DNA of 64,000 nucleotides. Origin: a virus (taxonomy: Duplodnaviria > Caudoviricetes). The translations under genes were made by a program, and so were the position numbers. Position 1 is the first letter of the stretch. Each line of letters starts with the position of its first letter. The stretch lies in the IMG/VR virus record IMGVR_UViG_3300028888_000067, positions 64,638 through 128,637 of that record; one strand, 5' to 3'. Below are positions 19,839 through 47,679 of the stretch, piece after piece. Under the pieces are notes generated by a model. It worked only from the letters and a program-made list of their open reading frames with translations, made no database searches and had not been told where the DNA came from.

Positions 19839-20321
19839 ATGAAAATATTGAATGCACATAGTTTCATTGCTGAACGCATGAAGTTCAGACCAGTCACGAA
19901 TGTTGAATGGGATAAAATCAAAAGAGAGATAGAACATCAAACATTGCCTGATTTGCCGCTTTCATATGACAATATTCTTGTGTCCGGCAACATATTAACT
20001 ATAGAAACTATCATGGATATTCATTCATTGAATTTCAGCAATGACTATATTGTTATAGAACAAAAAGACTGGTGGTACAGATTGCACAATAGCGTATTTC
20101 GTGTATTAGTAAGATACTGCGAATATAGTCCAACAAACATGTCATACTGGACTGGTTATGAACAAGCGTTTAAAGGTTCTCAGTTTCCAACAACGAATGA
20201 AAACAAATACAGAATCACAAGAATAAGAGGCACTTTGTCTAAACAAGAGCTTCATGACATAAAAAATGTTGATGATCTTAAACGGATATATGACAAGTAC
20301 AATTTGACTTATGATAAATAA
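19839..20321 (+). CDS. Leader-family protein 1 (FIAE-RMKFRPVTNVE), unknown cargo
   Basis: Shared N-terminal leader. Confidence 0.75.
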   Translation: MKILNAHSFIAERMKFRPVTNVEWDKIKREIEHQTLPDLPLSYDNILVSGNILTIETIMDIHSLNFSNDYIVIEQKDWWYRLHNSVFRVLVRYCEYSPTNMSYWTGYEQAFKGSQFPTTNENKYRITRIRGTLSKQELHDIKNVDDLKRIYDKYNLTYDK

Positions 20322-20333
20322 TATATGTGAATC

Positions 20334-20825
20334 ATGAAAATATTTGACATAGATAGTTTCATTGCTGAACGCATGAAGTTCAGACCAGTCACAAATGTAG
20401 AATGGGACAAAATCAGAAAAGAGACTCTTGTAGAGCTGCCTGTCAAATATGAAAACATATTGACACTTGGAAATGTGCTAACTATAAAGAAGACATATAA
20501 ACATAAAGAACGCTCAAATGAAAATAGTGAAACTGATTATATTGTCACATTAAAAGAATATGCACCTGTTGAAATAGCAAGAGATGCCAAACAAGTGTTG
20601 GTGTCATATAGACTAAACGGAAACACTAATCAGATTACATATTGGGTTGATTTTTTTGATAACTTCAAACCAGCTTTTCCAAAACTTGATATTTTAGGTG
20701 TATGCGAGTTTGAGGTGACTAACATAAGAGGAACTTTGCCCGATTACATCTTGCGTAAGATGAAAGACATAAATTATATGAAACGCGTGTATGATGAATA
20801 TCATTTGGCTTGTGACTGTTCATAA
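20334..20825 (+). CDS. Leader-family protein 2, diverged paralog of protein 1
   Basis: 40-bp identical leader DNA (20353-20392 = 19858-19897); GATAAATA at 20313. Confidence 0.75.
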   Translation: MKIFDIDSFIAERMKFRPVTNVEWDKIRKETLVELPVKYENILTLGNVLTIKKTYKHKERSNENSETDYIVTLKEYAPVEIARDAKQVLVSYRLNGNTNQITYWVDFFDNFKPAFPKLDILGVCEFEVTNIRGTLPDYILRKMKDINYMKRVYDEYHLACDCS

Positions 20826-20848
20826 CAAAGCATTTGTGTCTAAAAAAT

Positions 20849-20879
20849 AAATGGAACATTCAAAGATGTTCCATTTTTT
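20849..20879 (+). terminator. Rho-independent terminator
   Basis: AAATGGAACAT-TCAAAG-ATGTTCCATTT stem followed by a T run. Confidence 0.7.
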
Positions 20880-20933
20880 ATTATTTTATATTGTAGAAAA
20901 TTTGTTATTAGTAATATTAAAACATTTGTAAGT

Positions 20934-22178
20934 ATGGCAAAACAATCAGGAGTCTTTACAATTAGCGATTTGAACAAAGCATTGTCGAAAAATTCGAAGT
21001 TTGGCGCATTGCTGTCCGAAGGTGGCGGCACATCTAAAATCACCGAGTACATCCCTACAGGCAACTATCTTTTGAACGCTTGCATGAGTGGAAGCTTGCT
21101 GAAAGGAATACCCAACAACAGAAGCATCTGCTTAAGCGGTGAGTCCGGTGTTGGCAAGACGTATCTTCTGCTCAACATGTGCAGGGAAGCTCAGAAACTT
21201 GGCTATTTCATTATCTATTACGACAGTGAGAATGCTGTGGACGGTGAGATTGCCACGAAATTTGGAATAGATTTGTCAATGTTCAGATACGAGCCTGTGC
21301 AGACAGTCCAGGAATTCAGAAGCAATGTGACGAACATCATAGACACATTGATTGAACAGAAGGAGCAAGGCAACGAGATTCCAAAAGTGTTCATCGCATT
21401 GGACAGTGCCGGCAACCTTGCGTCACAGAAAGAAGTCGATGACGCGAAGTCTTATTCAGACAAAGCTGACTTGAGCCGCGCGAAGATGATGAAGTCAATC
21501 TTCCGTATCATGATGTCAAAACTCGGCATCATCGGGGGAACATTCGTCTTCACAAACCATGTCTACAAGACAATGGATTTGTATGCACAAGACACTCAAA
21601 GCGGCGGAACAGGTCTGGTGTATGGCGCTTCAATCATCCTGAATATGACAAAAGCGAAGTTGAAAGAAGGCTCTGAACAGACAGGAATCGTCGTCACAGC
21701 AAAGCCGCAGAAAAACCGTTTCTGCATTCCGACACCTGTGAAATTCCATATTTCATTCCAGAAGGGAATGAACCGTTATGTGGGTCTGCAGGACTATATG
21801 AGCTGGGATGCTTGTGGCGTTGGTAGAGGAAAGTTCATCAATGCAAAAGAATATTCAAAACTTGGTGAATCTGAAAAAGAGAAATGCAGAAAGCATCCGA
21901 TGAGCGATGACGTGTATTTCTTGCCAAGCGATACCGGAAGATATATCTGCACTGACCACCAGTTAGAGCCGTTCAAATGGTCAGAAGTATGTTCAAGCGG
22001 AGTGTGGACGCAAGACGCGATTGAAAGACTGGACAAGAATGTGATTGTCGGGATATTCGCCTACAATGACGCGAAGAACAATGATGACATCAAGACGATT
22101 CTTGACAATGATGAAGAATACAGCACGGATTCTATTGACGACACTGACGACATCATAAAACACCAGTTAGATGATTAA
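20934..22178 (+). CDS. uvsX: UvsX/RecA-like recombinase
   Basis: IPTGNYLLN, GESGVGKT Walker A, YYDSE, LDSAGNL, TNHVY, SGG.G..Y.AS. Confidence 0.92.
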   Translation: MAKQSGVFTISDLNKALSKNSKFGALLSEGGGTSKITEYIPTGNYLLNACMSGSLLKGIPNNRSICLSGESGVGKTYLLLNMCREAQKLGYFIIYYDSENAVDGEIATKFGIDLSMFRYEPVQTVQEFRSNVTNIIDTLIEQKEQGNEIPKVFIALDSAGNLASQKEVDDAKSYSDKADLSRAKMMKSIFRIMMSKLGIIGGTFVFTNHVYKTMDLYAQDTQSGGTGLVYGASIILNMTKAKLKEGSEQTGIVVTAKPQKNRFCIPTPVKFHISFQKGMNRYVGLQDYMSWDACGVGRGKFINAKEYSKLGESEKEKCRKHPMSDDVYFLPSDTGRYICTDHQLEPFKWSEVCSSGVWTQDAIERLDKNVIVGIFAYNDAKNNDDIKTILDNDEEYSTDSIDDTDDIIKHQLDD

Positions 22179-22419
22179 CGAAGACTTAGTCCCATTGAAA
22201 TACATAACTGGGTCTTACCGGTATGAAAAACGATATCCCACGGCAGAAGACTTGTTGTGGGATATTGTTAGTATTGAGAAAAAGTCAGTTACTGTAGAAT
22301 ACATAGACTGGATTGAGCCCGAGACGAGAGACCAGTTGCTTGAAGAACTTGTTGAGAGCAAGAACATAAAAATAAACAACGGAAAAATAACGATATTAAA
22401 GACAGACTGGGATGGATAA
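22171..22419 (+). CDS. Hypothetical protein
   Basis: Overlapping ORF between uvsX and the helicase. Confidence 0.65.
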   Translation: MINEDLVPLKYITGSYRYEKRYPTAEDLLWDIVSIEKKSVTVEYIDWIEPETRDQLLEELVESKNIKINNGKITILKTDWDG

Positions 22420-23104
22420 AGTCACAAACAACGAGCAAGTAGTGTTCAAGTATGTTCTTGACCACCCGATATATTACAAATACATAGACAAGTCGTTTTT
22501 CAAAAACAAAAGTCTTAGTGCATTGATACTCATTTCAAAAAGATTCTATGACCGCTACAAGGAGATTCCTTCTGAGCGGCAGATGCTTGCGCTTATACAT
22601 GATAGTTCTAAGATAGACATTGACCCCGAATTCATAAGTCTTGTCTATTCTATCGACACAGAATCATATGACCAAGAATGGCTCAAGGGGACGACTGAAG
22701 CTTGGATAAAGTGGAAGCATCTGAACAAGCAGTTAGTCGACAGTATTGAGATTGCTAAAATGACAGATGTCAACATAGACAATGTCGATGAAGTCGTGCA
22801 GAAAATCGTGGACACGATTGATGTATCCAATGAGGTGAACTTCACGTTTGATGAGGGACTTGACTTTTTCAATGCTGACAGCCACTACCAAGACACATCT
22901 AAAAAGATACCTTCTGGTTATAAATATATTGATATGATCACAGGAGGCTATGACGAGAAGACTCTCGTGTGTTATATCGGACAGTCTAACATTGGAAAAT
23001 GCGTATGCGGAGACAGCAGGATAAGAGTAAGGAACAAGAACACCGGTGAAATCGTCGAGATGGAAATCGGTGATTTTTATAAAATGATAGCAAACAGAAA
23101 GTGA
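22412..23104 (+). CDS. gp41: gp41/DnaB-type replicative helicase N-terminal half fused to a 34-aa split-intein N-fragment
   Basis: GLDFF, KIPSGY..ID..TGG, truncated Walker A GQSNIGK followed by the intein block A-like CVCGDSRI; stop 34 aa later. Confidence 0.8.
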   Translation: MDKVTNNEQVVFKYVLDHPIYYKYIDKSFFKNKSLSALILISKRFYDRYKEIPSERQMLALIHDSSKIDIDPEFISLVYSIDTESYDQEWLKGTTEAWIKWKHLNKQLVDSIEIAKMTDVNIDNVDEVVQKIVDTIDVSNEVNFTFDEGLDFFNADSHYQDTSKKIPSGYKYIDMITGGYDEKTLVCYIGQSNIGKCVCGDSRIRVRNKNTGEIVEMEIGDFYKMIANRK

Positions 23105-23106
23105 TT

Positions 23107-23598
23107 ATGGCTGAACGGATAGATGTAGGCAAACTACGTGGAGCTTATTACAACAACAGCAAAGACTCATATTCAGACAGCACATCGCTGTCTAACATGA
23201 AGCAGAGTTTGTCTTTAGAGAATGACGCACTGCTCGTCAATGGCCCTGATGCGTCGTTCAATGATGTGGAGACTATGATCGTCGAACACATAAAAACTAT
23301 GCCGGTCGCAGACTACAATGACATCTCCAACAAAGACAGCAAGACGCTTGCTGACATTGAAGCTTACACTAATCTCATAAACGTGATTGCGATGTTCAAC
23401 GACATCGCTTCTTTGTCTACAATAATACTCATATACTGTGACTATTTCAATCTGAAATACCATAAAGTGATAATGGAACTTCCGAATGGCTTGAAGCTTA
23501 AACTATATGATGAGCTGAAGATGCACACACGTGATCATTCGATACTAGAAAGCTTGTTCGGGTTTGAAAGTGGCAGTCACGTAAAAAGACTTTTCTAA
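23107..23598 (+). CDS. Hypothetical protein (weak resemblance to the gp33 late coactivator)
   Basis: IILIYCDYFNL..KVI..L...LKLKLYDE pattern; resemblance only. Confidence 0.55.
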   Translation: MAERIDVGKLRGAYYNNSKDSYSDSTSLSNMKQSLSLENDALLVNGPDASFNDVETMIVEHIKTMPVADYNDISNKDSKTLADIEAYTNLINVIAMFNDIASLSTIILIYCDYFNLKYHKVIMELPNGLKLKLYDELKMHTRDHSILESLFGFESGSHVKRLF

Positions 23599-24641
23599 TG
23601 GCAAAAATCTGGATAATTTCTGACACTCATTTTGGAGTGAAAAACAACTCGAAGAGATGGGAGGACCTGATGCAGGGATGGATGGACAAGTTCTTTTTCC
23701 CATTGTTAGACAATGAAGTTGAAGACGGCGATGTGTTCGTCCATTGCGGCGACATTTTCGACAACAGGCAGAGTGTCGGACTTTCTACGATGAACATCTG
23801 CATAGGCTTCTTTGAAAGACTTTCAAAATATTTCAAAGAAATGTATCTGCTTTGTGGCAATCACGACGCTTACTACACGACGAAGAATGACATCACTTCG
23901 CTTGAATGCTTGAAACATATTCCAGGCGTGAATGTGATAAAGACCCCGTTAGTGAAGACTGTTCTCGGGAAGACTATGTGTTTCATCCCGTGGACAGAAG
24001 ACACCCGTGTGTTCGAGAAAATAGCTGGCATAGACACGAAACCGGATGTGCTGTTCTGCCATGCTGAGTTCAACGGATGCATAATGAATTCTTATGGCAG
24101 CAAGTCAGAAAACGAGCTTGGCGTCCCAGATGTCTCTAAAATCTATTCTGGACATATACACCACAAGCACAAGCACTGCAATGCGACATATGTCGGATCA
24201 CCATATCAGTTGACTCAGAATGACAGGAACAACAACAAATGCGTGTGGACATTCGATCCGGAAACATTAGAAGAACATGTGTATTTCAACACATATTCTC
24301 CGGAATTCATAAGAGTGAAATATGAAAGTATAAGTGACATGACATTCGGCGAGTTCAAGAAAATGTGCGAGAACCGTTTTGTCGAAATCGAAACAGACTA
24401 CAAGCTAATGTCAAAGTGCAGATTCCAGAAACTGATTTCTCTGGTGAATGACAACTATGACATAAAAGACTTGTCTTTCTATCCGACGAAGAAAGATGAG
24501 AATGAAAACCAAGATATAAATATTTCTGATTGCATGTCTATCACTGAAATGCTAGACAAATACATTGATGAAATGGTTGTTTGCGATCCAGCAACGAAAA
24601 AGTCTGTAAGAACAATTGCAAAAAAACTTATACATGAATAA
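23598..24641 (+). CDS. gp47: Recombination endonuclease gp47 (Mre11/SbcD)
   Basis: SDTHFG, GDIFDNR, GNHD, HAE, SGHIH, YVGSPYQ. Confidence 0.9.
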   Translation: MAKIWIISDTHFGVKNNSKRWEDLMQGWMDKFFFPLLDNEVEDGDVFVHCGDIFDNRQSVGLSTMNICIGFFERLSKYFKEMYLLCGNHDAYYTTKNDITSLECLKHIPGVNVIKTPLVKTVLGKTMCFIPWTEDTRVFEKIAGIDTKPDVLFCHAEFNGCIMNSYGSKSENELGVPDVSKIYSGHIHHKHKHCNATYVGSPYQLTQNDRNNNKCVWTFDPETLEEHVYFNTYSPEFIRVKYESISDMTFGEFKKMCENRFVEIETDYKLMSKCRFQKLISLVNDNYDIKDLSFYPTKKDENENQDINISDCMSITEMLDKYIDEMVVCDPATKKSVRTIAKKLIHE

Positions 24642-25035
24642 GAGACAAAACCGCGAAGAAATCGAGTCAGCGTTAGAAATCATTGCCAAAACCGGCGAGC
24701 ATGTGGTTCATGACGCAGACGAGAACGCACAGATCGGATGGTGTGAGCTGAATATCGGCGACACAGTGTATTTCAAGACATTTGATGACGTCAATGATGT
24801 GCTCACTGTTTCAAAGGGCGAAATAATCGAAATCATTTCATCAGAAAAGAAAGTGATGAACAAGCCAGACAACAACATGAAGACAGATGGCTGGCACAGA
24901 GAACGGACAATCACATACCGCGTCAGATGGAACGGGATGACTGCAGCCATAGATTCGAGATATGTGTTCACAGACAAACTTGACGCGACACTTGCAGCAA
25001 TCTGCGAAACAGCAAAAACTTATTTCACAGTATAA
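24634..25035 (+). CDS. Hypothetical protein (SH3-like)
   Basis: ATG at 24634; IGDTVYF. Confidence 0.65.
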   Translation: MNKRQNREEIESALEIIAKTGEHVVHDADENAQIGWCELNIGDTVYFKTFDDVNDVLTVSKGEIIEIISSEKKVMNKPDNNMKTDGWHRERTITYRVRWNGMTAAIDSRYVFTDKLDATLAAICETAKTYFTV

Positions 25036-25045
25036 TAATACATTT

Positions 25046-25060
25046 TTTTGTTATATTAAA
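25046..25060 (+). promoter_or_regulatory. TTTTGTTATATTAAA promoter-like motif
   Basis: Copy of the repeated motif. Confidence 0.65.
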
Positions 25061-25070
25061 CTATAACCAA

Positions 25071-26028: not shown

Positions 26029-26047
26029 TTATAATAATATATTTATC

Positions 26048-27152: not shown

Positions 27153-27154
27153 TT

Positions 27155-30153: not shown

Positions 30154-31941
30154 ATGGATAAATCAATTGTTTTCAAGAAAGATTTCGTGAGTCCGAAGAC
30201 TGGCGAGACGATTGACATGATAAAGATACGAGACCGGATTGACTTTGTCCGCGGCAGTGTCTACAATGTGAATGCTTGCTTTGGGGCATTGCTTGACAAC
30301 CTCAACTTCATCTACACGTTTGACGTCCCGACACAAGCGACAGACGGCACGCGCCTGTTCATAAATCCAGAATGGACAAACAAGTTGTCTGATGGCGAAA
30401 TCAGGTTTGTTCTCATTCATGAGCTGATGCATTGTGTGTTTGACCACATGAACAGATCTAAAGGGCATAGCATGATGCTGTCTAACGTAGCTGCTGACTT
30501 TGAAGCAAACGGCGCATGCTTCATCGACAATTTCGTGACTAAATGGCAGATGGAGCATCTTGGATCTTATTTCAGCGACAAGTATGCGTCATATGGTGAT
30601 TTGTGGAGCTATGAGATGATTTACAAAGACTTGCTTGACAGCGGATTCATTCCAAACGCGCCAGAACTTGACATCATCTGGCCCAAGACAGAAAAGCCAA
30701 AGGGCGACCCGAAGATTGAGCACACGACTGATGAATGGAAACGCGGACACAGCGATGCTATACATGAATGCAACAAGACACTCAATGATGAATATTCTAA
30801 AATCACTAAAAAAGTTGGCGAACGCTACAAACCCGATGAGATAAAGAGAGCTCTCGAGAACTCTATCATACGGATAAAGCCGCTGCATGGAAACTATCCA
30901 GACAACCCATTCAGAATGAATCATATACCCGAGTATGAGAAATTCATAAAGCCCGAGTTCATAACATATGAGCAAGGCTGGGACAGTGCAATTGCTGAAA
31001 GCATGAAGTCTATATTGTATGTGATTGGACTGATAGACAAACAGGGTGCTTCAGGCGGACTTTCTGGAATGAACTCAGACGGTTCTTTTCCTGCTACTGA
31101 CCCTGCTGAAGAAGCATTGAACATACCAAGGCCGCCGATGCCAAATGTGATTGTCGTTTTGAGCAAAGAAGACGTCATAAGCCAGCAAGAAGGCGCTAAC
31201 ATGGCACGTGAAGCTGGCTATTCTGGCGAGTTCATAAAAGAGGAGCAGCTGAATGACATTGCGCAGAAATGGAAAGAGCAAGTCCAGCAGCAAGCTGGAA
31301 AAGAGGGCTCGTCATTGTTGACAAGACATCTGTTAGAAACACAAGCGTCGGGATACAACTGGACATATGAGTTGAGGAAAATGATGAACAACTCGCTGAA
31401 CAACTCTAAAAAATACACCACTGAATGGGGTGAGAAACGCGGACTTGCTAGAGACACGATGACACTGAGACACAAGAACTCACGCAATTCAGTCAAAGAC
31501 ATCGTGTTTTTAGTAGACTGCTCAGGCAGTGTTTCGGACAAGACTCTGTCACACATATTGAGCGAATGCTATTCTATTTCTAAAAAATGCAATGTCAAGA
31601 ACATCACATACGCTTACTTCACGACAAAAGTAGAACTTGTCGAAACTAATTCTCGCAGAATCACGAACAGTGTCAAAGAGACTGCTTTGATGAAGCTTAA
31701 GGAAGACCGCAAAGCAAGAGGCGGGCATATAACGGGCGGCACAGATTTCATGAACGCATTGAAATGGGTAGATGAGGTTGGCGGCGCGAGATGCGTGATA
31801 GTCGTGACTGACGGCTATGACACTCCCGTGAGCAAGCCGTCATATGTAGACAATTTGATCTGGTGCATTTATGACAACAAAAATTTCAAAGCTGCAGACT
31901 CATCAAGAGTCGTGTATATCGACACGAGCAAAATGAAGTGA
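30154..31941 (+). CDS. DUF2201-type metallopeptidase + vWA domain protein
   Basis: PTQATDG..LFINP, HELMH (HExxH), N.A.D..N; MIDAS DCSGS, GGTDF, VTDGY. Confidence 0.88.
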   Translation: MDKSIVFKKDFVSPKTGETIDMIKIRDRIDFVRGSVYNVNACFGALLDNLNFIYTFDVPTQATDGTRLFINPEWTNKLSDGEIRFVLIHELMHCVFDHMNRSKGHSMMLSNVAADFEANGACFIDNFVTKWQMEHLGSYFSDKYASYGDLWSYEMIYKDLLDSGFIPNAPELDIIWPKTEKPKGDPKIEHTTDEWKRGHSDAIHECNKTLNDEYSKITKKVGERYKPDEIKRALENSIIRIKPLHGNYPDNPFRMNHIPEYEKFIKPEFITYEQGWDSAIAESMKSILYVIGLIDKQGASGGLSGMNSDGSFPATDPAEEALNIPRPPMPNVIVVLSKEDVISQQEGANMAREAGYSGEFIKEEQLNDIAQKWKEQVQQQAGKEGSSLLTRHLLETQASGYNWTYELRKMMNNSLNNSKKYTTEWGEKRGLARDTMTLRHKNSRNSVKDIVFLVDCSGSVSDKTLSHILSECYSISKKCNVKNITYAYFTTKVELVETNSRRITNSVKETALMKLKEDRKARGGHITGGTDFMNALKWVDEVGGARCVIVVTDGYDTPVSKPSYVDNLIWCIYDNKNFKAADSSRVVYIDTSKMK

Positions 31942-32040: not shown

Positions 32041-32343
32041 TTAGCTGCACTTTGCTTTGTCGCAAGTGTAGCCCTGGCTTTCTAACTGCCTGATGAAATT
32101 TTCTCTCGCCGATAAAGTGGGGAAGCCTTTTGAATGTTCTCCACTTTCATCAGAATATCTCACCCACCATTTCGCTACATATTTGCTGCTGCCTGTGAAT
32201 GTGTAATATGTTTTCGGCACATTGTTTTTGTGTGTGTCTTCTGCTCGGACAGCAGTTTCTTCTGCTTGCTTCCATTCTGCATTCGTGACAGGTCTGATTT
32301 TCATTCGTTCAGAAATGAATTGATTTGTGTCTAATATTTTCAT
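32041..32343 (-). CDS. Leader-family protein 3, small cargo
   Basis: MKILDTNQFISE-RMKIRPVTNAEW. Confidence 0.75.
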   Translation of the reverse strand: MKILDTNQFISERMKIRPVTNAEWKQAEETAVRAEDTHKNNVPKTYYTFTGSSKYVAKWWVRYSDESGEHSKGFPTLSARENFIRQLESQGYTCDKAKCS

Positions 32344-32347: not shown

Positions 32348-32917
32348 TTATTTGTCTATTGTTCCGTTACTAACAGTATAATTTACTTTAGCAGTTCCGT
32401 GCACTTCAGCATCGCCATACACGCAAGCAAAACTATATACCTGAGCATTGCCATGCACTTGAGCATTGACATACACTTTAGCACTGCCATACACTTGAGC
32501 ATTGCCATATATTTTAGCATTGTCATACACGGAAACATTATTAAATATTTTAGCGTTGTCGTATATTTTAGCATTTCCGCGCACTAAAGCATTATGATGT
32601 ATTTCAGCGCTTCCATACACTTGAGCATTTTCATACACCCAAGCATTTCCACTCACCCAGCAGTCTCCTTTCTGGTCTAGATTGTCATATGACTCAATCC
32701 AGCCGCCTAAGTCTCCTTTTTTGACTCCTTTAGATGGAATGTCTTTCAATGCTTTGATGCGATGCAAAGTATGTCCACTATTTGTTTTGTCCGTTTCATC
32801 AGTGAGTTCATATTTGTCGGCATTCATGTCTTGCTGGATCTTGTCCAGTTCTGCATTAGTCACAGGCCTGATCTTCATTCGTTCAGAAACAAACTGATTA
32901 GTGTCTAATACTTTCAT
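32348..32917 (-). CDS. Leader-family protein 4, hexapeptide-repeat left-handed beta-helix cargo
   Basis: MKVLDTNQFVSE-RMKIRPVTNAEL; GDLGGWIE..NL and (A.VYG[N/S])n repeats. Confidence 0.8.
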   Translation of the reverse strand: MKVLDTNQFVSERMKIRPVTNAELDKIQQDMNADKYELTDETDKTNSGHTLHRIKALKDIPSKGVKKGDLGGWIESYDNLDQKGDCWVSGNAWVYENAQVYGSAEIHHNALVRGNAKIYDNAKIFNNVSVYDNAKIYGNAQVYGSAKVYVNAQVHGNAQVYSFACVYGDAEVHGTAKVNYTVSNGTIDK

Positions 32918-33214: not shown

Positions 33215-33222
33215 TATTTATA
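33215..33222 (-). promoter_or_regulatory. T4-type late promoter TATAAATA
   Basis: Heads the 3-gene minus-strand unit containing two leader-family genes. Confidence 0.65.
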
Positions 33223-35812: not shown

Positions 35813-36632
35813 TAGCAACGGCAATAAATTGCATGAACAGCAAGATGTCTACAGATATGGCTCTTACAATTTGCCTGAGGTAGGATGGAAAACAGAAAAC
35901 TTTGATGAATATGTGTACCTGCAATGCACAATATCATCTTTTTTAGTTGGCGGCTGCAAAGTGAACATCCCAAATTTGACACCTGCAGAAAAAGACTATT
36001 ATAATCGCATACATATAGACTTCATATTAGATATCATTGAAGAGAATGGCGAGGCCAAAAGACTGCTGATTGACGCAAAGAGAGTGTATTACGACAAAGA
36101 ACGTCCTTATTTGACTTTAAGCATGTCAGCTTACAATGCGACGAAAGATGTCTATTTGCTAATAAACAATGAACATGTATATGACACGAGCAAAGGCTGG
36201 TACCATTTCAAGAACTCTCGTCTTCTTATGTACAATCTTGCTAAAATAAGAGAAGCTGGCATAGCTGATGAACTTACAGGAAAAGACGGGAACAAATATA
36301 TAAGAATATACATTGACTTGCTGGCCCAGCAAGTCACTCCATACCATACTGTGTTTTACGGGTATGATGGAAGCAACTGTTATAGCAATCCGCTTGAAGA
36401 ATTCGGATTCTTGCACACGACAAATGAAGTCTGCGCACTTAATAGATGTCTTGACAAAATGGCGAAAGACTTGAACAAGCAAGACAGGAAACGCTCGCCA
36501 AAAGAAAAAAGAGATTCGACACTTGCATATGCTAACAGTTTCTGCACACATATAGAGACCATAGGCGCTAACATCGGTATAAATACAGTGAAGCTCAATT
36601 CTATTATGAGAATGTGCAGACTGAAAATATAA
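35802..36632 (+). CDS. Hypothetical protein (possible PD-(D/E)XK-like)
   Basis: IDF...LIDAK pattern; weak. Confidence 0.65.
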   Translation: MKTDSNGNKLHEQQDVYRYGSYNLPEVGWKTENFDEYVYLQCTISSFLVGGCKVNIPNLTPAEKDYYNRIHIDFILDIIEENGEAKRLLIDAKRVYYDKERPYLTLSMSAYNATKDVYLLINNEHVYDTSKGWYHFKNSRLLMYNLAKIREAGIADELTGKDGNKYIRIYIDLLAQQVTPYHTVFYGYDGSNCYSNPLEEFGFLHTTNEVCALNRCLDKMAKDLNKQDRKRSPKEKRDSTLAYANSFCTHIETIGANIGINTVKLNSIMRMCRLKI

Positions 36633-36639: not shown

Positions 36640-37299
36640 ATGATAGCATTACCAATAATCTCTATTGTTCTCTGCTTTGCTTATGTGATATACATAGTGT
36701 TCAAATTCGGGGTTCCGACATCAATTTCAGAAACCTATTATCTGCTTCCAAACAAATGGGACTGGATGTTCAGCGCATGGTGTGTCCTCACAGCAATCCC
36801 GTTTGGACTGTGGTGGTTCACCGTTTCTCCCTCAAACATCTCTTGGATTCCCATTGTCGTCATGATTGGAATGTCGATGATTGGCGTCAGCTGCAGATAC
36901 AAGTCAGGCCCGAAGAAAGATGATGACTATGTGCCTGCTATAACTATGGATGACATGAAAAGCAAAGCAGTCCCGCATAAGTCATTCAAAGAATTCATGA
37001 GAGACATGATAGAAAGTTTCAAGCCGAAGAATTTCTTGAAATATGGCTGGACAAAACCCATTCATTATATGTGCTCTCTAATCGTCATAGTCTTGACCAG
37101 CGTGTGGGTTGGCATTGTCAATCCGATAGGAATCGCAAGTATGGTGATGTCATATGCAGCTTTCATCTTGATAGGAGTGAACACGCCTGCAGTATACAAC
37201 AAAGACTATTCAGTCGATGTAGACAACAAAGCATGGATCTTCTTCATGGAAATCATATGTTTCTTGCAGTTGTTCATTTTTGTGTGGAGCGTAGTATAA
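36640..37299 (+). CDS. Multi-pass membrane protein
   Basis: About 6 hydrophobic segments; P.SISETYY.L. Confidence 0.75.
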   Translation: MIALPIISIVLCFAYVIYIVFKFGVPTSISETYYLLPNKWDWMFSAWCVLTAIPFGLWWFTVSPSNISWIPIVVMIGMSMIGVSCRYKSGPKKDDDYVPAITMDDMKSKAVPHKSFKEFMRDMIESFKPKNFLKYGWTKPIHYMCSLIVIVLTSVWVGIVNPIGIASMVMSYAAFILIGVNTPAVYNKDYSVDVDNKAWIFFMEIICFLQLFIFVWSVV

Positions 37300-37311
37300 T
37301 AAAATGCAGTC

Positions 37312-37668
37312 ATGAAATACATATATGATTTCGCGGTATTCGAGAAAAAGTTCAGCACGAACATAAAAAATGAGTTGCAAGACCATTTCTGCGAGTTCTA
37401 TTACAGAAAACTGGATGGAGAGAAACGTCATGCTTACGGCACATTGAAAGAAGACTTCATCAAGCATTACTGGGAGCCTTCTGACAATGAAGACGCAAAC
37501 AAGCCAAGCGATGAGTATGTAGTGTACTGGGACATTGAAAGAAAGAACTTCAGGCAGTTCTCGCCTGACGCATTCATTGAACTTGTGAAAACATACGACA
37601 CATTAGAAGACTTCATAAAAGACAACCACAAATTAGAGCCAAAAGTCAGAAAAGCACTTAAACATTAG
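37312..37668 (+). CDS. DUF2693/WYL-like SH3 beta-barrel protein
   Basis: F.Y.K.DG..R.A.GTL, Y.D.E...FR.F. Confidence 0.75.
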   Translation: MKYIYDFAVFEKKFSTNIKNELQDHFCEFYYRKLDGEKRHAYGTLKEDFIKHYWEPSDNEDANKPSDEYVVYWDIERKNFRQFSPDAFIELVKTYDTLEDFIKDNHKLEPKVRKALKH

Positions 37669-37675
37669 AAAACAA

Positions 37676-38170
37676 ATGAAAATATTAAGCATGCATAATT
37701 TTGTTTCTGAACGAATGAAGTTCAAGCCTGTCACAAATGCAGAAATGGAACATATTAAAAAAGAAATAGAAACAAACAAGCCTTGTCCCGTTTCACTGTC
37801 ATCAATGAAAAGCATTGATGACATGCAGCCAGGCTGGATAATCTTCATAACAGATCATCATGCAAATGTAAAACAAAGTCTGCCGAGAATCGCTGTTCCA
37901 AATAAATATGTAGAAAATATATTTGGCTATGCCGTAGAGTATCCATACATTTTTGCAAGAACTATTTTTTCTTCCATTTCTTCTAATAAAACTGTTGTGT
38001 ATATACAATCAAGTGTGTTTCATGACAATTTTCCATATTCCACCACCAATCGGTATTATATTGACCGAATCTATAGATGGCATGTGCCGAATTTACAGAG
38101 CATCTGTAAAAGCAAAAATGATTTTATAGACTGGTATGACAGCATAGATTTTGATGATTTGCTGAAATGA
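37676..38170 (+). CDS. Leader-family protein 5
   Basis: MKILSMHNFVSE-RMKFKPVTNAEM; cargo distantly resembles proteins 1 and 2. Confidence 0.75.
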   Translation: MKILSMHNFVSERMKFKPVTNAEMEHIKKEIETNKPCPVSLSSMKSIDDMQPGWIIFITDHHANVKQSLPRIAVPNKYVENIFGYAVEYPYIFARTIFSSISSNKTVVYIQSSVFHDNFPYSTTNRYYIDRIYRWHVPNLQSICKSKNDFIDWYDSIDFDDLLK

Positions 38171-38174
38171 CATT

Positions 38175-38765
38175 ATGATATATATTTGTACTGAAATCAC
38201 TCCTAGCTATAGTCTTGACTATGAGCACATTACAATAGACAACAACCTCTGCAGTTTTTCAGAACAATACCGGCATCTGAGAGGAATATGGCAGATATAC
38301 AATTATATCGACATTCCTGACGAAGTCGGAATATTCCAGAAAAGAAGAAGACTTCCCGTAAACACTATACCAGAAAACTTTGATGCTGTGGCTCCACGCT
38401 GTATCTGGCCATGTGAAGTGCGACAGCAGTACATTGACTGCGGGCCATGCAGCCACGGATCTCATGCAGAACGAGACATTGATTTAGTAGAACACATCAT
38501 AGCTGAACAGTCGTTTAGCGACTATATAAGAATTCCGGACAACAATGAATGCTACTGGCACAACATGTTCATAATGAAAAGAGACGATTTCACAAGATAC
38601 TGTGATTTCATGTTCAGCGTGCTGTTTGAGAAAGACAGGTATGCTGGCCCGCAAAGCAACTGTTTTCTGGCAGAGAGAATAGGATCTTGGTGGATATGGA
38701 AAAACTTTGCCAAAGACAGAATATTTTCCTGCGAAGTAGAAGAATTCCCTGACATCACTCGATGA
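38175..38765 (+). CDS. DUF4422-like glycan-biosynthesis protein
   Basis: VGIFQKRR, QQY...H...D, NMFIMK..F..YC.F.F..LF, FLAER. Confidence 0.7.
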   Translation: MIYICTEITPSYSLDYEHITIDNNLCSFSEQYRHLRGIWQIYNYIDIPDEVGIFQKRRRLPVNTIPENFDAVAPRCIWPCEVRQQYIDCGPCSHGSHAERDIDLVEHIIAEQSFSDYIRIPDNNECYWHNMFIMKRDDFTRYCDFMFSVLFEKDRYAGPQSNCFLAERIGSWWIWKNFAKDRIFSCEVEEFPDITR

Positions 38766-41700
38766 TGAACATGTTCCTTGCAGTGCTGTATGTGTTGCCA
38801 TTTGTGTCATTCAAAGTAAGTGACACCTCCCAGCATCCTTTCTCTTTGAACAGTCTGTGATAATGCTTGTTCGTTGATGTGAATGTAGTACCAGTGTTGA
38901 GATTAGTAAGTTTCCATACAGGGTTTTTCTTTCCCCATATCCTGCAGTTTGTGTAGTTGAAGTTTATGTCCGTGTATGCCGGTATTCTCGTCACATTGTT
39001 GATGCACACGCAGTCATTCCAGTTCGGATTGCATTCGACTGAATTTGTGGAGAACCTCAACTGGTAATTGTCCGGATCTCTATGAATGTTTAGAATGTTG
39101 TCCTGGCCAACATTAGCAAGATACTGTGTAGAAACGACGCCAATGTATTTCATGTCTCCTGTCTTGCCGCTGTTTTTAGAGACGCCGATTATTCTGAACC
39201 CGTCGGGGATTTCTAGTTCGTATGGAGAAGCAGCATGACTTGAGTCATAGTCCCATATGTAAGAATAATGGAACTGGCTTATCACTGGATTAGTAGACTC
39301 ATTCAGCTGTCTGACTACTTCTGCCATGTAGTTGAGGTTTCCAGAATAAGAAACAGGAAATCTGAAAGCAGCATACTGGTTGTTGTCATTGACAAGTTCC
39401 AGCCATTTGCCGCCAAGTGAGTCACTGACACCAGCATCAACTGCTTCCGGAGAATCAATCGGGTTTCCACTTGTGTCAAAGCATCCGAGTTCAAAATAAC
39501 ACGGGATGTCACCAGTGATGCACATCGCGTTCCACCATAGATGATCCATGTCTTGCCAAGCTACATCAAGGTTGTTCCAGATATATGCCCCGCGGTTGTC
39601 TTCAAGAACACTCGGACCATCATTCGCAAAATTGTAGATGAGCATGCTTTCATCCAAATCAGTTGTCCCCTCGTATTCGCCAAGGAATGACGCACGATCC
39701 ATAGCAGTGTATGTTGCAGAACGCAAGTCATTCCAAGTCATGTTGTTCGTGAACGGGAAACTCCAAGTGCAGCTCAAAGAATCCCAAGGACGCTCAGTCG
39801 TCCAGTCAAGTGTCTTCGTTCTCATTCTGCACCAGCCAGTGAATTCTACTTCTTTTGGGCAGACTGTTATCGCAGCTTCTTTCTTTATGACACTCACATT
39901 GTTGTTCCAGTCATACAAGTTCATCGTCACGTCATAGTCGCCTACATATGGCAGGACGACGCCGACATCAGCATAGCCTGAAGACACAAGTCCGCATATC
40001 GTCACATCAAAACCAGGATTGATGTCCGCGTCTTTATGCAGCACCCATTCTACTCGAGATATATTTGAAGCATACATGTTGAGATAGTTCCAAGTGATGT
40101 CATGCACATAGTCCCAAGTGTATATGAAATCATTCCACACAACGTCATTCTCATCAACTTTAAGTTCTACAAGTGCTCCGACAGGAATGTTCTCGTTGTC
40201 GGGAAGACATGTGTTGCTGTCAGTCTCGAAATCATTGGCTTGCAGAGCAGTGTTCACCAGATTTGGATAATAGTCACTGAACTCAGCAAGATAATAATTC
40301 CCGTAGTTAGAATCATTTGCTAAAACATAATATATCCAAGGAGTGCTGTCATCTAATGTAGTGCCTGAAACGCCAAACAAGTTGTTGCCTGTCATTTCAT
40401 ATGGCGGCATCACATCAAGATTCTGCACGTCACCCAAGTCAGCTGACACTTGCACCTCTTGGTGATCTTGCGTTTCTGGCCAGTTCGCGTTGTAGTCGCC
40501 AATCACATTCTGTCCGAACTCGGTGACATCTTCAAGATTAGAGTCATACAACGACTGGTTGTTAGATGATGCTGGAATGAATGCTGGTGAACTTTGTCTC
40601 AATTCACCGACAATACCATTTCCAGCAGGCAAAGTGTTTGCATGAATGCCAAACGGACGCAAGTCTTCAATGTAGAAACATCCATTCGGAGAACCCAAGA
40701 CACTGAAGTTGTTCTTTGCTCCTGATGAATTGCAGAACAAAGTGTTCTGTGTCATAGTGTGTCTCACTGTTGATACATGAAATGAGTCAGCTTCGCCTAT
40801 GATGTCGATGATTCTTGTGTTGAGCGGCAAGAACTCTTTCTCAAGCTTTCGTTTGAGTCCATAAAGCTTTATGACAGCTTCTTCTATCGTGTAAGTGAAG
40901 TTCTCATAAGTCTCGGGATATTCATGCCCATAATAAGAGTTTGGCTCAGAACCACCAGTCAAAGTGTTTATCCTGTAAGCAAGTGAAAGCTTTCCGGTCT
41001 TTCTGAACTTTTTAGAAGGCAATGTGACTGTTGTCGAGTCGTGTATCACTTCATGATTAGACAGAGAATAATTCGTAGCTGAAAAATGCTTGCCATAGTT
41101 TTCAGATGTGACATCAACATTTTTCCACCATTCTCTTATAGACACATTGTCATAACCGAAAAAGCGTATCGCATTGATGAGTGATTTGTATGAGCCAATG
41201 TAAGAATAGATGTTGTGTCCTTCCATTATGATTTCTTTTCTCTTCTGGTTCATCAACTCATAGTCAACAAGCTGCTCTTTTATGTCAGAATCTTGGAATA
41301 TGCTGAAGTCTACATTGTTGATGTCATAGCCGAGATTCTGGCACATCGTTGTCAGACGCTCATCTTCTTCTACAGATTTTGCATACACGACAAATGTGCC
41401 AATATGGTACTCAACATTGTTTGCGTCAACATAATAAAGTTTCAAGTCTCTGCGGAATGTCATGTATTCGTCATTCCTGTTGCAGAAACAAATGTCCACT
41501 GCAGCTGCTTGAGATCTCCATTCTGCGTTTTTCTTGTAAACTATGTCATGCGCATCCTGGTCTACATGGTCAAACTCAACCGGATTAGATCTAAGGTTCT
41601 CAATCTTGACAGCATCCATGTAGTTTATGTCAGGGCAGTTGTAGTCACTATACCTCAACGATGATGTGTCTTCAGGCGGGCAAGCTCCAGAATCAAATCC

Positions 41701-42009: not shown

Positions 42010-42020
42010 TTATAATTGTG

Positions 42021-43385: not shown

Positions 43386-43389
43386 AAAT

Positions 43390-43423
43390 TATAAATAATT
43401 AGTTAGATATTAGTTTATTTATA
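43390..43423. promoter_or_regulatory. Pair of opposed late promoters (TATAAATA + at 43390, - at 43416-43423)
   Basis: Two exact motifs in the 43-bp divergent intergenic gap. Confidence 0.6.
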
Positions 43424-43428
43424 AAAAT

Positions 43429-45498
43429 ATGGCATTCACTCCGTTAATAAAACCGTTGAATCCCCAAGGCACTACATTCTACACATTCTCAAGTGCTGCG
43501 AGAGATTTGTCAAAATGCATGGCAAACACTCAGAAAGAAATCGTCTTTTCACATTTTGTCTGCATAAACATTCCAGATTTCATAAACACAAGTAACTACG
43601 AGCATGGTTCGACAACGCCAAACAACAGTGGTTTAGTGCCAATCAGCATAGACAGGAACTTGACACAACTCGGCGGCGTGCATCATCTGCTCGACAGAAG
43701 TGCTGGCTCAGTGAAACCGACTTCTCAGCTTCTTGCTGAATCGTTGCAAGACTATGTGTTCAACTATGAGGAACTGCTTATAAGCAACTCGACAGACAAC
43801 ACGACAGACCGTTCTGTCGCTGAGAGAGTTTTCTGGCACTGGCTTGCTCAGACAGGCGCAATCAACTGGACATTCGACCAAGCGAAGATTGCTCCTGCTT
43901 TGCAGAACGCACAAGAAGTGCGGTTTGTCGAGGGCTATGAAGCTGGAGGGTATGCTTATGAGAACGTAGTGAAATACATCGGGACGATTGACATAACGAA
44001 CAATGTCGACATCGCCAATGAAGCTTACACAGAAATATACGTGCATATCCCTTCGGAACATGGCTCCACGCCAGTCGTCTTGTTTGAGCAAGAGTTCGAT
44101 GACAACTTCAATGACGGCGCCACAAGCCAAGTGTTCAACAACCAAGACTACATCCTTGGGCAAGACGCAAGCACATACGACACGCATCCTGTTGATGAGA
44201 GAGCTTTGTATGATGTGCAAGATGACCACCAGTATGTGAATGCTTCTTCTTGTAGTTGGGGAAGCAGCCCGTCAACTAATGTGGACAACTACAGCCATGA
44301 ACAATCACCAAATGATGGTGTGAACATGTACAAGACTACAGTGGATGGCATCTGCATAGACTTCAACACGAACTCGTATGCTGACATCGTCCTCAACCAT
44401 ATTGCTAACATGGACGAGTTCAACAAGACGGGTGACAGTTTCGAGTTCAATGCAGTGCTGGTGTATTATGACATTGTTGATGTTTCTACTGGTACAAAGA
44501 CTAGTAATCTGTATGGCATACTGTTCCTTGATGACGTGAAGTCTGAGTCTTGGGACTATTTCCAGAGATACCCCAAATACAAGCCAGTCACCGGAATGCA
44601 GAACGGAAACTCTTACGGCTTCAAACTCAATTTGAGAATCGACATAGAGCCAGACAAAAACGGAATCACAAGTCTCGTCAATGAATACAACACTTTCTCG
44701 ATGAGCTTGTTCGCCGACGCAATCGCAAGAATGCAAGACAGTGTGGAGATGTTCACGAAGACAAGAGGCTCTTTAAGTTCCATAGAAGACCGGCTTTCAG
44801 CACTTGAACTGCTGATGGCTTCTATATCTGACTATGAACATCTTTCGCAGAGAGTGCAAGAGCTTTCTGATTCTCTTGAGAACGCGAACCTCGCTTTCGC
44901 AGACAGGAACTCACTGCTTGACCTGATTGCCAACTTGAGCGACCGCATCGACTCTATAATGAATGGCAGGGCAAATGTGTCTCTTCAATACAACACTGAT
45001 GTGATACGCTCGGGCTACAACACATATGTAGACAGCAGCACGCCAAACATGGTCACTATAAACTCATCGGACAATGGCTACAACATAATGAAGACGACTC
45101 TTAACAACGGTGGTGGAATCATAAATAAAGACCATCCAATGGTGCTGAATGACCAGACAAGAACAGACAATGATGTCTACACGATACTGAAGCCTGCTTC
45201 AAACATGTTGAGAATACATACTGATGACTCGATACCAGCAGTGTATGACATAAAGATTTACATTGACTCCACACTCAACAACTGGCGTGAAGGCCAGAAC
45301 ATAAGACTGGTGTTCCCGTCATTGAGTGTCAATACGCTTAACGGCAAAAACATAATGATATACACCGGAGAAACATATGATTTAGCTGACACTGTCCTTG
45401 CTTCAGAAATAACGCATGACAATCCTATCATAGAATTCACATGTCTTGACCCTGCATTCGGATCATCCGAAAACATCGTTCATGACGTGATAAGATAA
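43429..45498 (+). CDS. Putative virion structural protein (689 aa)
   Basis: TPLIKPL..QG.TFYTFSSA, ERVFW.WL, FEFNAVLVYYD, NLYGILFLD; coiled coil; late promoter upstream. Confidence 0.65.
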   Translation: MAFTPLIKPLNPQGTTFYTFSSAARDLSKCMANTQKEIVFSHFVCINIPDFINTSNYEHGSTTPNNSGLVPISIDRNLTQLGGVHHLLDRSAGSVKPTSQLLAESLQDYVFNYEELLISNSTDNTTDRSVAERVFWHWLAQTGAINWTFDQAKIAPALQNAQEVRFVEGYEAGGYAYENVVKYIGTIDITNNVDIANEAYTEIYVHIPSEHGSTPVVLFEQEFDDNFNDGATSQVFNNQDYILGQDASTYDTHPVDERALYDVQDDHQYVNASSCSWGSSPSTNVDNYSHEQSPNDGVNMYKTTVDGICIDFNTNSYADIVLNHIANMDEFNKTGDSFEFNAVLVYYDIVDVSTGTKTSNLYGILFLDDVKSESWDYFQRYPKYKPVTGMQNGNSYGFKLNLRIDIEPDKNGITSLVNEYNTFSMSLFADAIARMQDSVEMFTKTRGSLSSIEDRLSALELLMASISDYEHLSQRVQELSDSLENANLAFADRNSLLDLIANLSDRIDSIMNGRANVSLQYNTDVIRSGYNTYVDSSTPNMVTINSSDNGYNIMKTTLNNGGGIINKDHPMVLNDQTRTDNDVYTILKPASNMLRIHTDDSIPAVYDIKIYIDSTLNNWREGQNIRLVFPSLSVNTLNGKNIMIYTGETYDLADTVLASEITHDNPIIEFTCLDPAFGSSENIVHDVIR

Positions 45499-45526
45499 AC
45501 TGCCAGTCAGACTCCTCCTTTCCTTG

Positions 45527-45550
45527 AGCCCGTAGTGATACGGGCTTTTT
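45527..45550 (+). terminator. Rho-independent terminator
   Basis: AGCCCGTA-GTGA-TACGGGCT followed by TTTT. Confidence 0.8.
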
Positions 45551-45647
45551 ATGAAAATGTCTAGTCAATGAAATTAAGATGTTTGAAATATTTAATTTTT
45601 ACAAGACTAAAGGGATGATTCCGTAAAATTTTATAAAATTCGTTCAA

Positions 45648-45682
45648 GAAAACCGCTATGTCTTTAGCATAGCGGTAGTTCG
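45648..45682 (+). mobile_element. Possible IS200/IS605- or IS607-type end hairpin (orphan remnant)
   Basis: ACCGCTATG-TCTTTAG-CATAGCGGT-AGTTC resembles tnpB-element right ends; no transposase nearby. Confidence 0.4.
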
Positions 45683-45691
45683 CTAGCTTGT

Positions 45692-46204
45692 TTAATAGTC
45701 TGTGAACTTTGGCTGCTTGCTTTTGTCATAATTTATGGGGCATAAATCGAACATTGAAATGTGTTTCACATCTTGTTTGACTTTCCATCCAGATATGTCA
45801 CCAGCAAATTTAGAACCAAAAAACATATATCTCATATTATTGACATTAGAAACGTCCCACTTTGATATGTCGCCATTGAAATCAGCGCGCAGAAACATTC
45901 CTCCCATGTCAGTTACATGAGAGACATCCCATTTAGAAATATCACCATTGAATTCTAATCTAAGTTCAGATGAAACAAACAGTCTATGCATATCAGTTAT
46001 CTTTGATGTGTCTATGTTGTTCAAGTCACATTCGGGGCCTTCATTCTTTATGCGTTCGTCAATTATATGTATGAGTTCAAGTCTTGTTTGTGGAAAGTAT
46101 ACATATTTACCGTATTTTTTCTGCAAAATGTCAAATTCTGCATTAGTGACTGGCTTGACTTTCACTCGTTCAGAAATGAATTTGTCTGCACTTAAAACTT
46201 TCAT
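45692..46204 (-). CDS. Leader-family protein 6 with DUF285/BspA-like repeats
   Basis: MKVLSADKFISE-RVKVKPVTNAEF; FNGDISKWDVS.V.M..MF repeats. Confidence 0.85.
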   Translation of the reverse strand: MKVLSADKFISERVKVKPVTNAEFDILQKKYGKYVYFPQTRLELIHIIDERIKNEGPECDLNNIDTSKITDMHRLFVSSELRLEFNGDISKWDVSHVTDMGGMFLRADFNGDISKWDVSNVNNMRYMFFGSKFAGDISGWKVKQDVKHISMFDLCPINYDKSKQPKFTDY

Positions 46205-46225
46205 AATAAAAATAAACTATTTGAA

Positions 46226-46233
46226 TATTTATA
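46226..46233 (-). promoter_or_regulatory. T4-type late promoter TATAAATA
   Basis: 21 bp upstream of leader-family protein 6. Confidence 0.65.
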
Positions 46234-46461
46234 AATTTTCATCATAAATTTATTATGAAAAAGTTTTTTCATCGTATCTTATTGCCATGCAATTCATTAG
46301 ATGAAAAGTATGCAAAATCTGGATTATATGAAAATACAAGATGAATCTTTTTTCAGATTACTTAAGACTTAAAGAGCTCTAGAGCTCTAATCAAGTTAGA
46401 TGTCATCTAATCAATTTAGAATAAGCTTAAATAGATTATATGTCTAAGATATGAAAATGTC

Positions 46462-47679
46462 TTAGATGTCATTAGATGAAATGTTGTTTTTGTTTTTCTT
46501 TGGCTGCAGATTTCTATGTTTTGACATCGGGCAGTTTTTGAACATATGAGTCTTATGATACAGGCTGGTGATGTCCCATCCTGACAAGTCTTGCATGAAA
46601 CTTATAGCGCCATCAAACATCTCTTTCATGGTAATCACTTTTGACACATTCCAGTCTTTCAATGGCTGGTTGAATGATATGGCGTTTGTGAACATGTTCT
46701 CCATACTATACACTTTAGACATTTTTTCTCCCCATTTGCCAATTGGCTGGTCGAATGCTTTTGCACAATCAAACATATGAGCCATGCTTATCACATTTGA
46801 CACATCCCATTCGCTTATGTCTTGGTTGAATTTTTCTGCACAATTGAACATGTAACTCATATAGCAGACTTTAGAAACTTTCTGTTTCCATTCGCCAATT
46901 GGCTGGTTGAATGATGCTGCGTTGTAGAACATGTAACTCATGTCAACGACAGATGAAACATTCCAGTCTTTTATGTCTTTGTCAAATGATTCTGCATTGA
47001 AGAACATAGCATTCATGTCAGTGACTTTTGAGACATCCCAATCACCTATCGGATGGTTGAACATCTTAGCACTGCGGAACATGCTATACATTGTTCTAAC
47101 ATTAGACACTTTCTGTTTCCATTCGCCAACTGGCTGGTCGAATGTGACTGCTCCGCGAAACATTTCTCCCATATTGTTGACATTAGAGACATCCCATTCA
47201 CTTATGTCTTGGTTGAACGCACGTGCGCATTTGAACATCGCTTCCATGTTTTTTACTGCGCTGACTGTCCAGTTTCCTATTGGCTGGTTGAATGATTCTG
47301 TGTTTTCAAACATGTGCCGCATAGTATATACTTTTGAAACGTCCCAGCCACCAATCGGGCGGTTGAATTTTTTTGCATTTTTGAACATATGTTCCATGTT
47401 TGTGACATTTGAGACATCCCATTGAGATATGTTTCCATTGAACTTTGATAGTTTATTAATAGAAAATAGATAAGACATGTCAACTATGTTTCCAGTGTAT
47501 ATGTCATTCAAGTCGCATTCGTCTCCGTCTTTCTCTACATGTTCTATTATAAGTCTTTGCAGTTCGTCTTTTGTGTTTGGAAAATATCTGTATTTTTTGA
47601 ATTTATCCAATTCTGCATTAGTGACTGGCTTGACTTTCACTCGTTCGGACACGAATTGGTCTGTGTTTAGTATCTTCAT
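46462..47679 (-). CDS. Leader-family protein 7 with about 12 DUF285/BspA-like 25-aa repeats
   Basis: MKILNTDQFVSE-RVKVKPVTNAEL; FNQ.I..WDVS.V..M..MF repeats. Confidence 0.88.
   Translation of the reverse strand: MKILNTDQFVSERVKVKPVTNAELDKFKKYRYFPNTKDELQRLIIEHVEKDGDECDLNDIYTGNIVDMSYLFSINKLSKFNGNISQWDVSNVTNMEHMFKNAKKFNRPIGGWDVSKVYTMRHMFENTESFNQPIGNWTVSAVKNMEAMFKCARAFNQDISEWDVSNVNNMGEMFRGAVTFDQPVGEWKQKVSNVRTMYSMFRSAKMFNHPIGDWDVSKVTDMNAMFFNAESFDKDIKDWNVSSVVDMSYMFYNAASFNQPIGEWKQKVSKVCYMSYMFNCAEKFNQDISEWDVSNVISMAHMFDCAKAFDQPIGKWGEKMSKVYSMENMFTNAISFNQPLKDWNVSKVITMKEMFDGAISFMQDLSGWDITSLYHKTHMFKNCPMSKHRNLQPKKNKNNISSNDI

Follow-up and report, generated by a model that had tools for sequence, protein, structure and literature searches.

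A two-part N-terminal leader on diverse proteins of an uncultured phage lineage, a candidate capsid-targeting propeptide

What does one N-terminal sequence do at the front of proteins whose bodies differ widely? The question is raised by a 64,000-nucleotide stretch of DNA (the window) at positions 64,638 to 128,637 of IMG/VR record IMGVR_UViG_3300028888_000067, from a virus of the Caudoviricetes (Duplodnaviria), in which seven open reading frames (ORFs) begin with a leader of about 25 residues, MK(I/V)(L/F)xxxxF(I/V)(S/A)ER(M/V)K(F/I/V)(R/K)PVTN(A/V)E. The leader is divided here into module 1 (residues 1-12, MK-I/V-L-x4-F-I/V-S/A-E) and module 2 (from R13 to about residue 30, RMK-x-R/K-PVTN-A-E followed by an amphipathic helix). 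It is probably a T4-type capsid-targeting propeptide in an extended, two-part form, cut between Glu12 and Arg13; what is new is the two-part leader itself, the size of the family that carries it, and the binding-type cargo behind it.

The leader family and its bodies

The original prediction, made from the letters of the window alone, listed ORFs starting at 19839, 20334 and 37676 on the plus strand and at 32343, 32917, 46204 and 47679 on the minus strand, and all seven do start with the motif:

19839..20321, plus strand: m18, 160 aa; leader at residues 1-25, then a beta-rich body of about 135 aa (superfamily A)
20334..20825, plus strand: m19, 163 aa; tandem paralogue of m18, with GATAAATA 21 nt upstream
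32041..32343, minus strand: m20, 100 aa; small body, cargo cluster 14
32348..32917, minus strand: m21, 189 aa; hexapeptide left-handed beta-helix body, YdcK-like
37676..38170, plus strand: m22, 164 aa; superfamily A body, distant homologue of m18 and m19
45692..46204, minus strand: m23, 170 aa; DUF285 (BspA-like) repeat body, with TATAAATA 29 nt upstream, at 46233
46462..47679, minus strand: m24, 405 aa; DUF285 repeat body, with TATAAATA 22 nt upstream, at 47701

A 15-residue pattern drawn from the leader, F[IVL][SA]ER[MVIL]K[FIVL][RK]PVTN[AVS]E, has exactly seven matches in the six frames of the window, each beginning eight residues after a start Met; recurrence of the leader through chance is excluded.

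The window is the second half of a linear record (G000) of 128,637 bp that CheckV rates as about 42% complete, so the source is probably a T4-related jumbo phage of roughly 300 kb. The scan of the whole genome and its relatives that had been proposed as a check was run, and the family is larger than claimed. G000 holds 24 copies of the leader, 23 of them N-terminal and 1 behind a different 62-residue piece, and the leader genes total 13.4 kb, about 10% of the record. Three further IMG/VR contigs carry the leader; one of them (G001; 121.6 kb, 38% complete) has 20 copies, shares almost only leader-family genes with G000, and the two look like largely complementary pieces of related genomes. A profile built from 21 leaders and searched against 1.84 billion cluster representatives matched 165 proteins of 35-405 aa at E<=1e-3, 85 of them at E<=1e-10, with alignments that begin at residue 1 in nearly all of the 150 matches listed; two matches with five tandem module-2-like repeats (P0015 and P0108) were rejected as spurious translations of repeat DNA. 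Module 2 was found only in the present lineage, in these 165 clusters and in the five JGI metagenome samples in which the leader occurs; the samples of IMG 3300028888, 3300032030 and 3300009872 contain the family. The leader was not found in 185,579 prokaryote species genomes, and neither tblastn with the 35-aa leader nor megablast with 20 kb of the window gave a match among 50,697 cultured-phage records.

Across 180 leaders Met1 and Glu12 are invariant (180 each), followed by Asn21 (177), Pro18 (176), Arg13 and Thr20 (173 each), Glu23 (168), Phe9 (166) and Lys15 (165), and conservation is down to noise by about residue 33; Glu12 stands at residue 12 in 157 of the 165 leader proteins. Selection acts on the peptide and not on RNA or DNA, since the invariant residues use many codons and their third positions are free: in 40 leaders Arg13 is encoded by CGA (18), CGC (17), CGG (3), CGT (1) and AGA (1), and Thr20 by ACG (17), ACT (15), ACA (6) and ACC (2). 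A reading in which the conservation serves the nucleic acid, as a translation-initiation or RNA element or as a recombination substrate, would draw on the runs of 38-40 identical bp between tandem neighbours, which are as originally reported (40 of 40 at 19858-19897 and 20353-20392, 38 of 38 at 46134-46171 and 47609-47646), and on a higher use of identical codons in leader than in body for some pairs, such as m18 and m19 (15 of 18 codons vs 17 of 44). It is nevertheless extremely improbable, given that third positions are free and that mean identical-codon use in the leader over all pairs is only 0.60; the DNA identities fit local gene conversion between tandem neighbours better than a conserved RNA element, and the effect of such conversion is modest. 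A Sec, Tat or lipoprotein signal peptide was also rejected, the leader being charged and polar throughout with no hydrophobic run.

By BLAST, 161 leader proteins fall into 33 clusters, of which a cargo-only hhalign comparison merges clusters 1, 4, 7 and 9 only (cluster 1 against cluster 4 with a probability of 96%, E 5e-9); since this comparison joins them, the three window bodies of about 135 aa are, at the level of sequence, distant paralogues. These four clusters make up about 40% of the members and form one diverged paralogue superfamily, while at least eight, and about ten, kinds of cargo have no mutual relation detectable by BLAST or hhalign, the DUF285 repeats and the hexapeptide helix among them. 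The earlier description of the cargoes as unrelated is therefore right for several kinds and wrong for the 40% in one superfamily, to which the three homologous window bodies belong; its calls of DUF285 in two bodies (E 5e-27 and 9e-117) and of a hexapeptide beta-helix in another are correct. The hexapeptide protein matches phrog_5070 and phrog_7964 from residue ~20-34, and its body has homologues without the leader in 86 cultured-phage records, aligning from query residue ~35. Because this cargo exists leaderless in so many cultured phages, the leader is judged to be portable across unrelated bodies; for the related idea that recombination through the leader shuffles it onto new cargo, the evidence is only modest. 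Bodies are far less conserved than the leader, with a mean column identity of 27% in A2 against near-invariant leader positions. Most of them have no family in Pfam or PHROGs; the commonest gave no Foldseek match at E<=1e-3 against PDB and BFVD, no usable match in the ESM Atlas, and a best Z of 5.6 (a ribosomal bL19-like barrel) in the VIA wide structure search, which is below that search's own noise level.

The opposite case considered at the outset, that the motif lies inside one folded domain, was tested by structure prediction, and the models place the leader outside the cargo fold as a flexible segment. The AlphaFold2 model of m18, made from a 37-sequence alignment, has a pLDDT of 86, with the body above 90 from residue ~35; residues 1-20 of the leader stand at about 50, with the lowest values, below 50, at residues 11-15, and a helix is predicted at residues 21-32. 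The hexapeptide member displays the same pattern; it was modelled poorly (pLDDT 50.7) and therefore lends weak support only.

Likeness to the T4 capsid targeting sequence

The prohead protease gp21 of T4 cuts after (L/I)-x-E. Module 1 resembles the sequence MKTYQEFIAE with which T4 IPIII and IPII begin; it ends in (I/V)-(S/A)-E with the Glu invariant, Val at P3 being a conservative departure. T4 IPI begins MKTFKEF and continues TSTTTPVSTITE (both T4 starts were read from NC_000866). These sequences form the capsid targeting sequence (CTS) of IPI, IPII and IPIII (Mullaney & Black 1996, as reviewed in PMC9026906 and PMC3012670); T4 propeptides of 10-19 residues bind the scaffolding core, bring the protein fused to them into the prohead and are then cleaved off by gp21 (PMC9026906, PMC3012670), and the internal proteins of T-even phages have only the leader in common (PMC12373910). 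Like the T4 CTS, the present leader has an MK start and an aromatic-(I/V)-x-E end and is common to otherwise unrelated proteins; its genes lie behind TATAAATA-type promoters, as in T4, and in the phage group the portal is of T4 type, the capsid protein of gp23 type and the protease of gp21 type. Unlike the T4 CTS, module 1 has 12 residues instead of 10 and is followed by a strongly conserved second module of 11-18 residues that is absent from IPII and IPIII. Where T4 has 3 such genes and the T-evens together about 10, at least 24 carry the leader here in 42% of a genome. Their bodies are acidic or neutral and of binding type, those of T4 small and basic, and the protease is fused to a scaffold. 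The present leader, unlike the T4 system, is known from sequence alone.

Module 1 also occurs on its own. Other G000 proteins begin with it and lack module 2, at window 18672 (MKILNLNDFINE), at G000 16349 (...FVNE) and at G000 12010(-) (...EFINE). The first of these is the gene directly ahead of m18:

18672..19823, plus strand: short-leader protein, 383 aa; MKILNLNDFINE, then unrelated sequence; directly upstream of m18 in the same unit

It has no Pfam or PHROG family. The short-leader gene at G000 12010(-) lies directly upstream of the T4-type portal gene (PF07230, 215 bits), which is preceded in all by three leader genes and one short-leader gene. Outside the lineage, a single-protein search of IMG/VR with the G001 protease matched only itself, and an alignment-based search retrieved relatives of the protease, around which 80 loci were examined. 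Starts like MKxxxxFxxF[IVL]xE are found in 44 of 1153 first-ATG ORFs on the protease strand, as compared with 24 of 7284 internal Met positions and 0 of 392 opposite-strand ORFs; there are up to seven such ORFs per protease locus, none with module 2. Starts of the form MKxxKTFExF(I/L)xE are seen across varied habitats in many loci, on a protein of 112-125 aa encoded immediately ahead of the protease and on several of its neighbours. As these starts recur beside the protease in many loci, a T4-like capsid-targeting leader is suggested to be widespread outside the Tequatrovirus group. The original proposal that the first 12 residues are a CTS is indirectly supported by the likeness to MKTYQEFIAE, by the invariant E12 and by solo module 1 near gp21-type proteases, and is strained by a P3 residue that is often Val.

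A candidate protease for this role is encoded by G001, where leader genes flank it on both sides:

G001, L018:9353-11350, plus strand: protease-scaffold fusion, 665 aa

Its N-terminal Peptidase_S77 domain (L018:9353-10042; 39.7 bits) aligns to T4 gp21 (PDB 5JBL), and His74 and Ser129/130 are invariant in 15 homologues. The remaining part resembles a scaffold, and in it a 14-residue repeat (DYLAEQLQKNCDHN) that includes D-Y-L-A-E occurs 14 times; the density of hydrophobic-[ILVM]-[ASN]-E sites is 25.6 per 1000 aa in this part vs 2.0 in the background. The fusion has more than 4,500 homologues, on contigs of up to 413 kb, so the fused protease-scaffold appears from these sequences to be usual across a large set of uncultured phages related to T4. 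G001 also encodes a gp23-type major capsid protein (L021:17959-19731, minus strand, 590 aa) which matches the Pfam model only from residue 97; near residue 52 it has M-M-N-E followed by S, a candidate maturation site like the short-class leader ends in which F-V-N-E is followed by S.

The TATAAATA promoter motif suggests that the leader genes may be transcribed together with head genes. TATAAATA lies 22-29 nt upstream of 9 of the 24 leader genes in G000, the others standing in tightly packed units behind it, and it is also found ahead of the portal gene, of several large genes of virion type and, in two copies, of the protease-scaffold gene. The promoter statements of the original prediction, with TATAAATA heading units or genes and GATAAATA lying 21 nt upstream of 20334, are accurate.

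By analogy with T4, module 1 would be the counterpart of the internal-protein CTS; it would bind the scaffolding core during prohead assembly and take the fused body into the head, and a prohead protease of the gp21 family would then cut between the invariant E12 and R13 to release it. Module 2 would either remain as a common mature N-terminus or be lost through another cut, after E23. Along these lines we infer that the leader proteins are targeted to the head, cleaved, packaged and ejected. If this is true, a head-packaged and possibly injected protein set of an uncultured jumbo-phage lineage is readable from sequence, and the set is unusually large (at least 24 genes, ~10% of the fragment) and differs from the T4 internal proteins in consisting of modules of binding type. 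Capsid-targeting leaders would then be known in a two-part version of 25 residues as well, and the MKxxxxFxxF(I/V/L)xE leaders beside gp21-type proteases in the 80 environmental loci suggest that CTS-based loading is general in T4-related phages. The leader and the protease-scaffold would also be a compact natural tag and partner that can be tested for loading foreign proteins into large capsids.

Jumbo phages offer a further comparison. Proteases of the phiKZ/SPN3US type cut after S/A/G-x-E, and the propeptides of these phages are not known to share an N-terminal leader. A propeptide of that type was rejected here, P3 being Ile, Val or Leu at E12 and Asn at E23. In phiKZ and SPN3US a protease related to gp21 cuts after Glu to trim many of the proteins that are packaged in the head and ejected (PMC5694885, PMC10052503). 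The present system is like theirs in belonging to a jumbo phage and in that the G001 protease also scores on the Peptidase_S80 model (25.4 bits), and unlike theirs in having Ile or Val at P3 and one leader common to all members.

Module 2 and competing explanations

Conservation is stronger in module 2 than at residues 5-8 of module 1, and any role for module 2 is inferred only. The original prediction held that this half of the leader has no known T4 equivalent; that is too strong, because the leader of T4 IPI is already 19 residues long (PMC9026906). The simplest guess is that module 2 makes a longer targeting propeptide by extending the contact with the core, and a second cut after E23 is then possible; the N-A-E at this position departs from the gp21 rule, though, and 12 of the 180 leaders have a residue other than Glu at position 23. 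Module 2 may alternatively be kept after maturation, as a docking or ejection element that the members have in common, or the Arg exposed by cleavage may matter in itself. Short-class leaders have S, N, A, E or G after the Glu, so R13 is not required by the protease. A version of the latter reading, in which the cut after E12 exposes an Arg-Met-Lys end on every member as an ejection or docking signal or an N-degron distinct from targeting, is considered unlikely; in the N-degron form the Arg/Lys end could be read by a Clp-type system, possibly a phage ClpA/C-like unfoldase, which would limit the lifetime of the injected protein. Were such a signal real, a single protease cut would both free the cargo and arm a second signal. 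Two genes in which module 2 stands without a normal module 1 hint that it also serves some separate purpose:

G001, 63859 onward (L020:19859-19999), plus strand: module-2-only ORF behind TATAAATA; starts MKIKPVTNTEFDE, with no module 1 remnant upstream
G000, L001:778-1413, minus strand: m01; a basic 62-residue N-terminal piece (…SKKQQRFFQLV…) replaces MKILxxxxF

After the foreign piece m01 retains LVSE-RMKIKPVTSTE, as ...LVSERMKIKPVTSTE, and its body is in common with a G001 gene that has the normal leader.

Several points weigh against a T4-type capsid-targeting propeptide. P3 of the E12 site is Val in 100 of the 180 leaders, Ile in 76 and Leu in 4, where the T4 rule has Leu or Ile, and the G001 gene listed above starts at module 2 (MKIKPVTNTE...) with no module 1. 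The bodies are mostly acidic or neutral, with a median isoelectric point of 5.9 against about 9.6 for T4 IPII* and IPIII*; being of binding type, with leucine-rich-repeat-like DUF285 and beta-helix rods, they would also fit a role that is external or unrelated to the capsid. No protease, scaffold or capsid gene was found in G000, which is about 42% complete, so the link to the protease rests on G001, a relative with which G000 has almost nothing but the leader family in common. A gp55-like late sigma factor was not found in G000 or G001, where the query was a single T4 gp55 sequence and the result is uninformative. The original idea of a library of injected effectors is conjecture, because the mostly acidic or neutral binding-type bodies are unlike the basic T4 internal proteins and no function could be assigned to them.

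One rival explanation makes the leader a docking or address tag for another machine, with module 2 and its helix plugging exchangeable binding modules (the DUF285 repeats, the beta-helix rods and small beta domains) onto the virion exterior or another phage assembly and module 1 as merely a common N-terminal start. This is fairly unlikely; it would account for cargoes that are binding or rod-like rather than enzymatic and mostly acidic, for the stronger conservation of module 2 and for the gene with module 2 alone, and late-type promoters suit any virion component, but the invariant E12 in a gp21-type site, solo module 1 by prohead proteases and the YLAE-rich scaffold point to the prohead interior, and no external docking partner was identified. 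It is quite improbable that the proteins are simply fast-diverging paralogues whose N-terminus is an inherited structural or stability element without a sorting role, spread by occasional exon-like shuffling. Distant homology within clusters 1, 4, 7 and 9 and the tandem arrays in which many members lie would be expected of such a family; the leader, however, sits on at least eight mutually unrelated bodies, including DUF285 and a hexapeptide protein that is leaderless in the 86 cultured-phage records, is set outside the fold by AlphaFold2, and is conserved far above the bodies.

A degron or recognition tag for a phage ClpA/ClpC-like double AAA+ protein, perhaps paired with ClpP of the host so as to regulate how abundant or how long-lived the leader proteins are, is very improbable. 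Such a protein is available, as G000 37774-39765 (minus strand) encodes 663 aa with AAA_2 and ClpB_D2-small domains and an IGF motif at 524-526, and R13 is nearly invariant though short-class leaders vary there, which suggests that residue 13 is constrained by something besides the protease; a ClpP gene was not found in G000 or G001, however, and there is no positional link between the unfoldase gene and the leader family, which co-occur in a single genome fragment. The 663-aa protein itself (L002:17774-19765, minus strand, upstream of the window) has no N-domain and carries IGF where ClpP-docking loops sit. With these alternatives set beside it, a capsid-targeting propeptide of the T4 type, cut after Glu12, is the reading retained here.

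Transcription units and neighbouring genes

Apart from m23 and m24, each directly behind its own promoter motif, the leader genes of the window stand in three units headed by TATAAATA:

17670..17677, plus strand: TATAAATA, heading the unit 17697-20825
17697-20825, plus strand: unit of a DUF4314 protein, a 136-aa ORF, the short-leader protein, m18 and m19
33215..33222, minus strand: TATAAATA, heading a unit of a 90-aa ORF, m21 and m20
36578..36585, plus strand: TATAAATA, heading the unit 36640-38765 of a 219-aa ORF, a WYL_2 protein, m22 and a DUF4422 protein

The DUF4314 protein (17697-18236, plus strand) is the first gene of the m18/m19 unit, and the WYL_2 protein (37312-37668, plus strand), an Sm-like SH3 barrel, lies directly upstream of m22. 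Between replication-type genes and the m20/m21 unit sits a gene for a 595-aa protein (window 30154-31941, plus strand) with a C-terminal HNH endonuclease match (phrog_1314).

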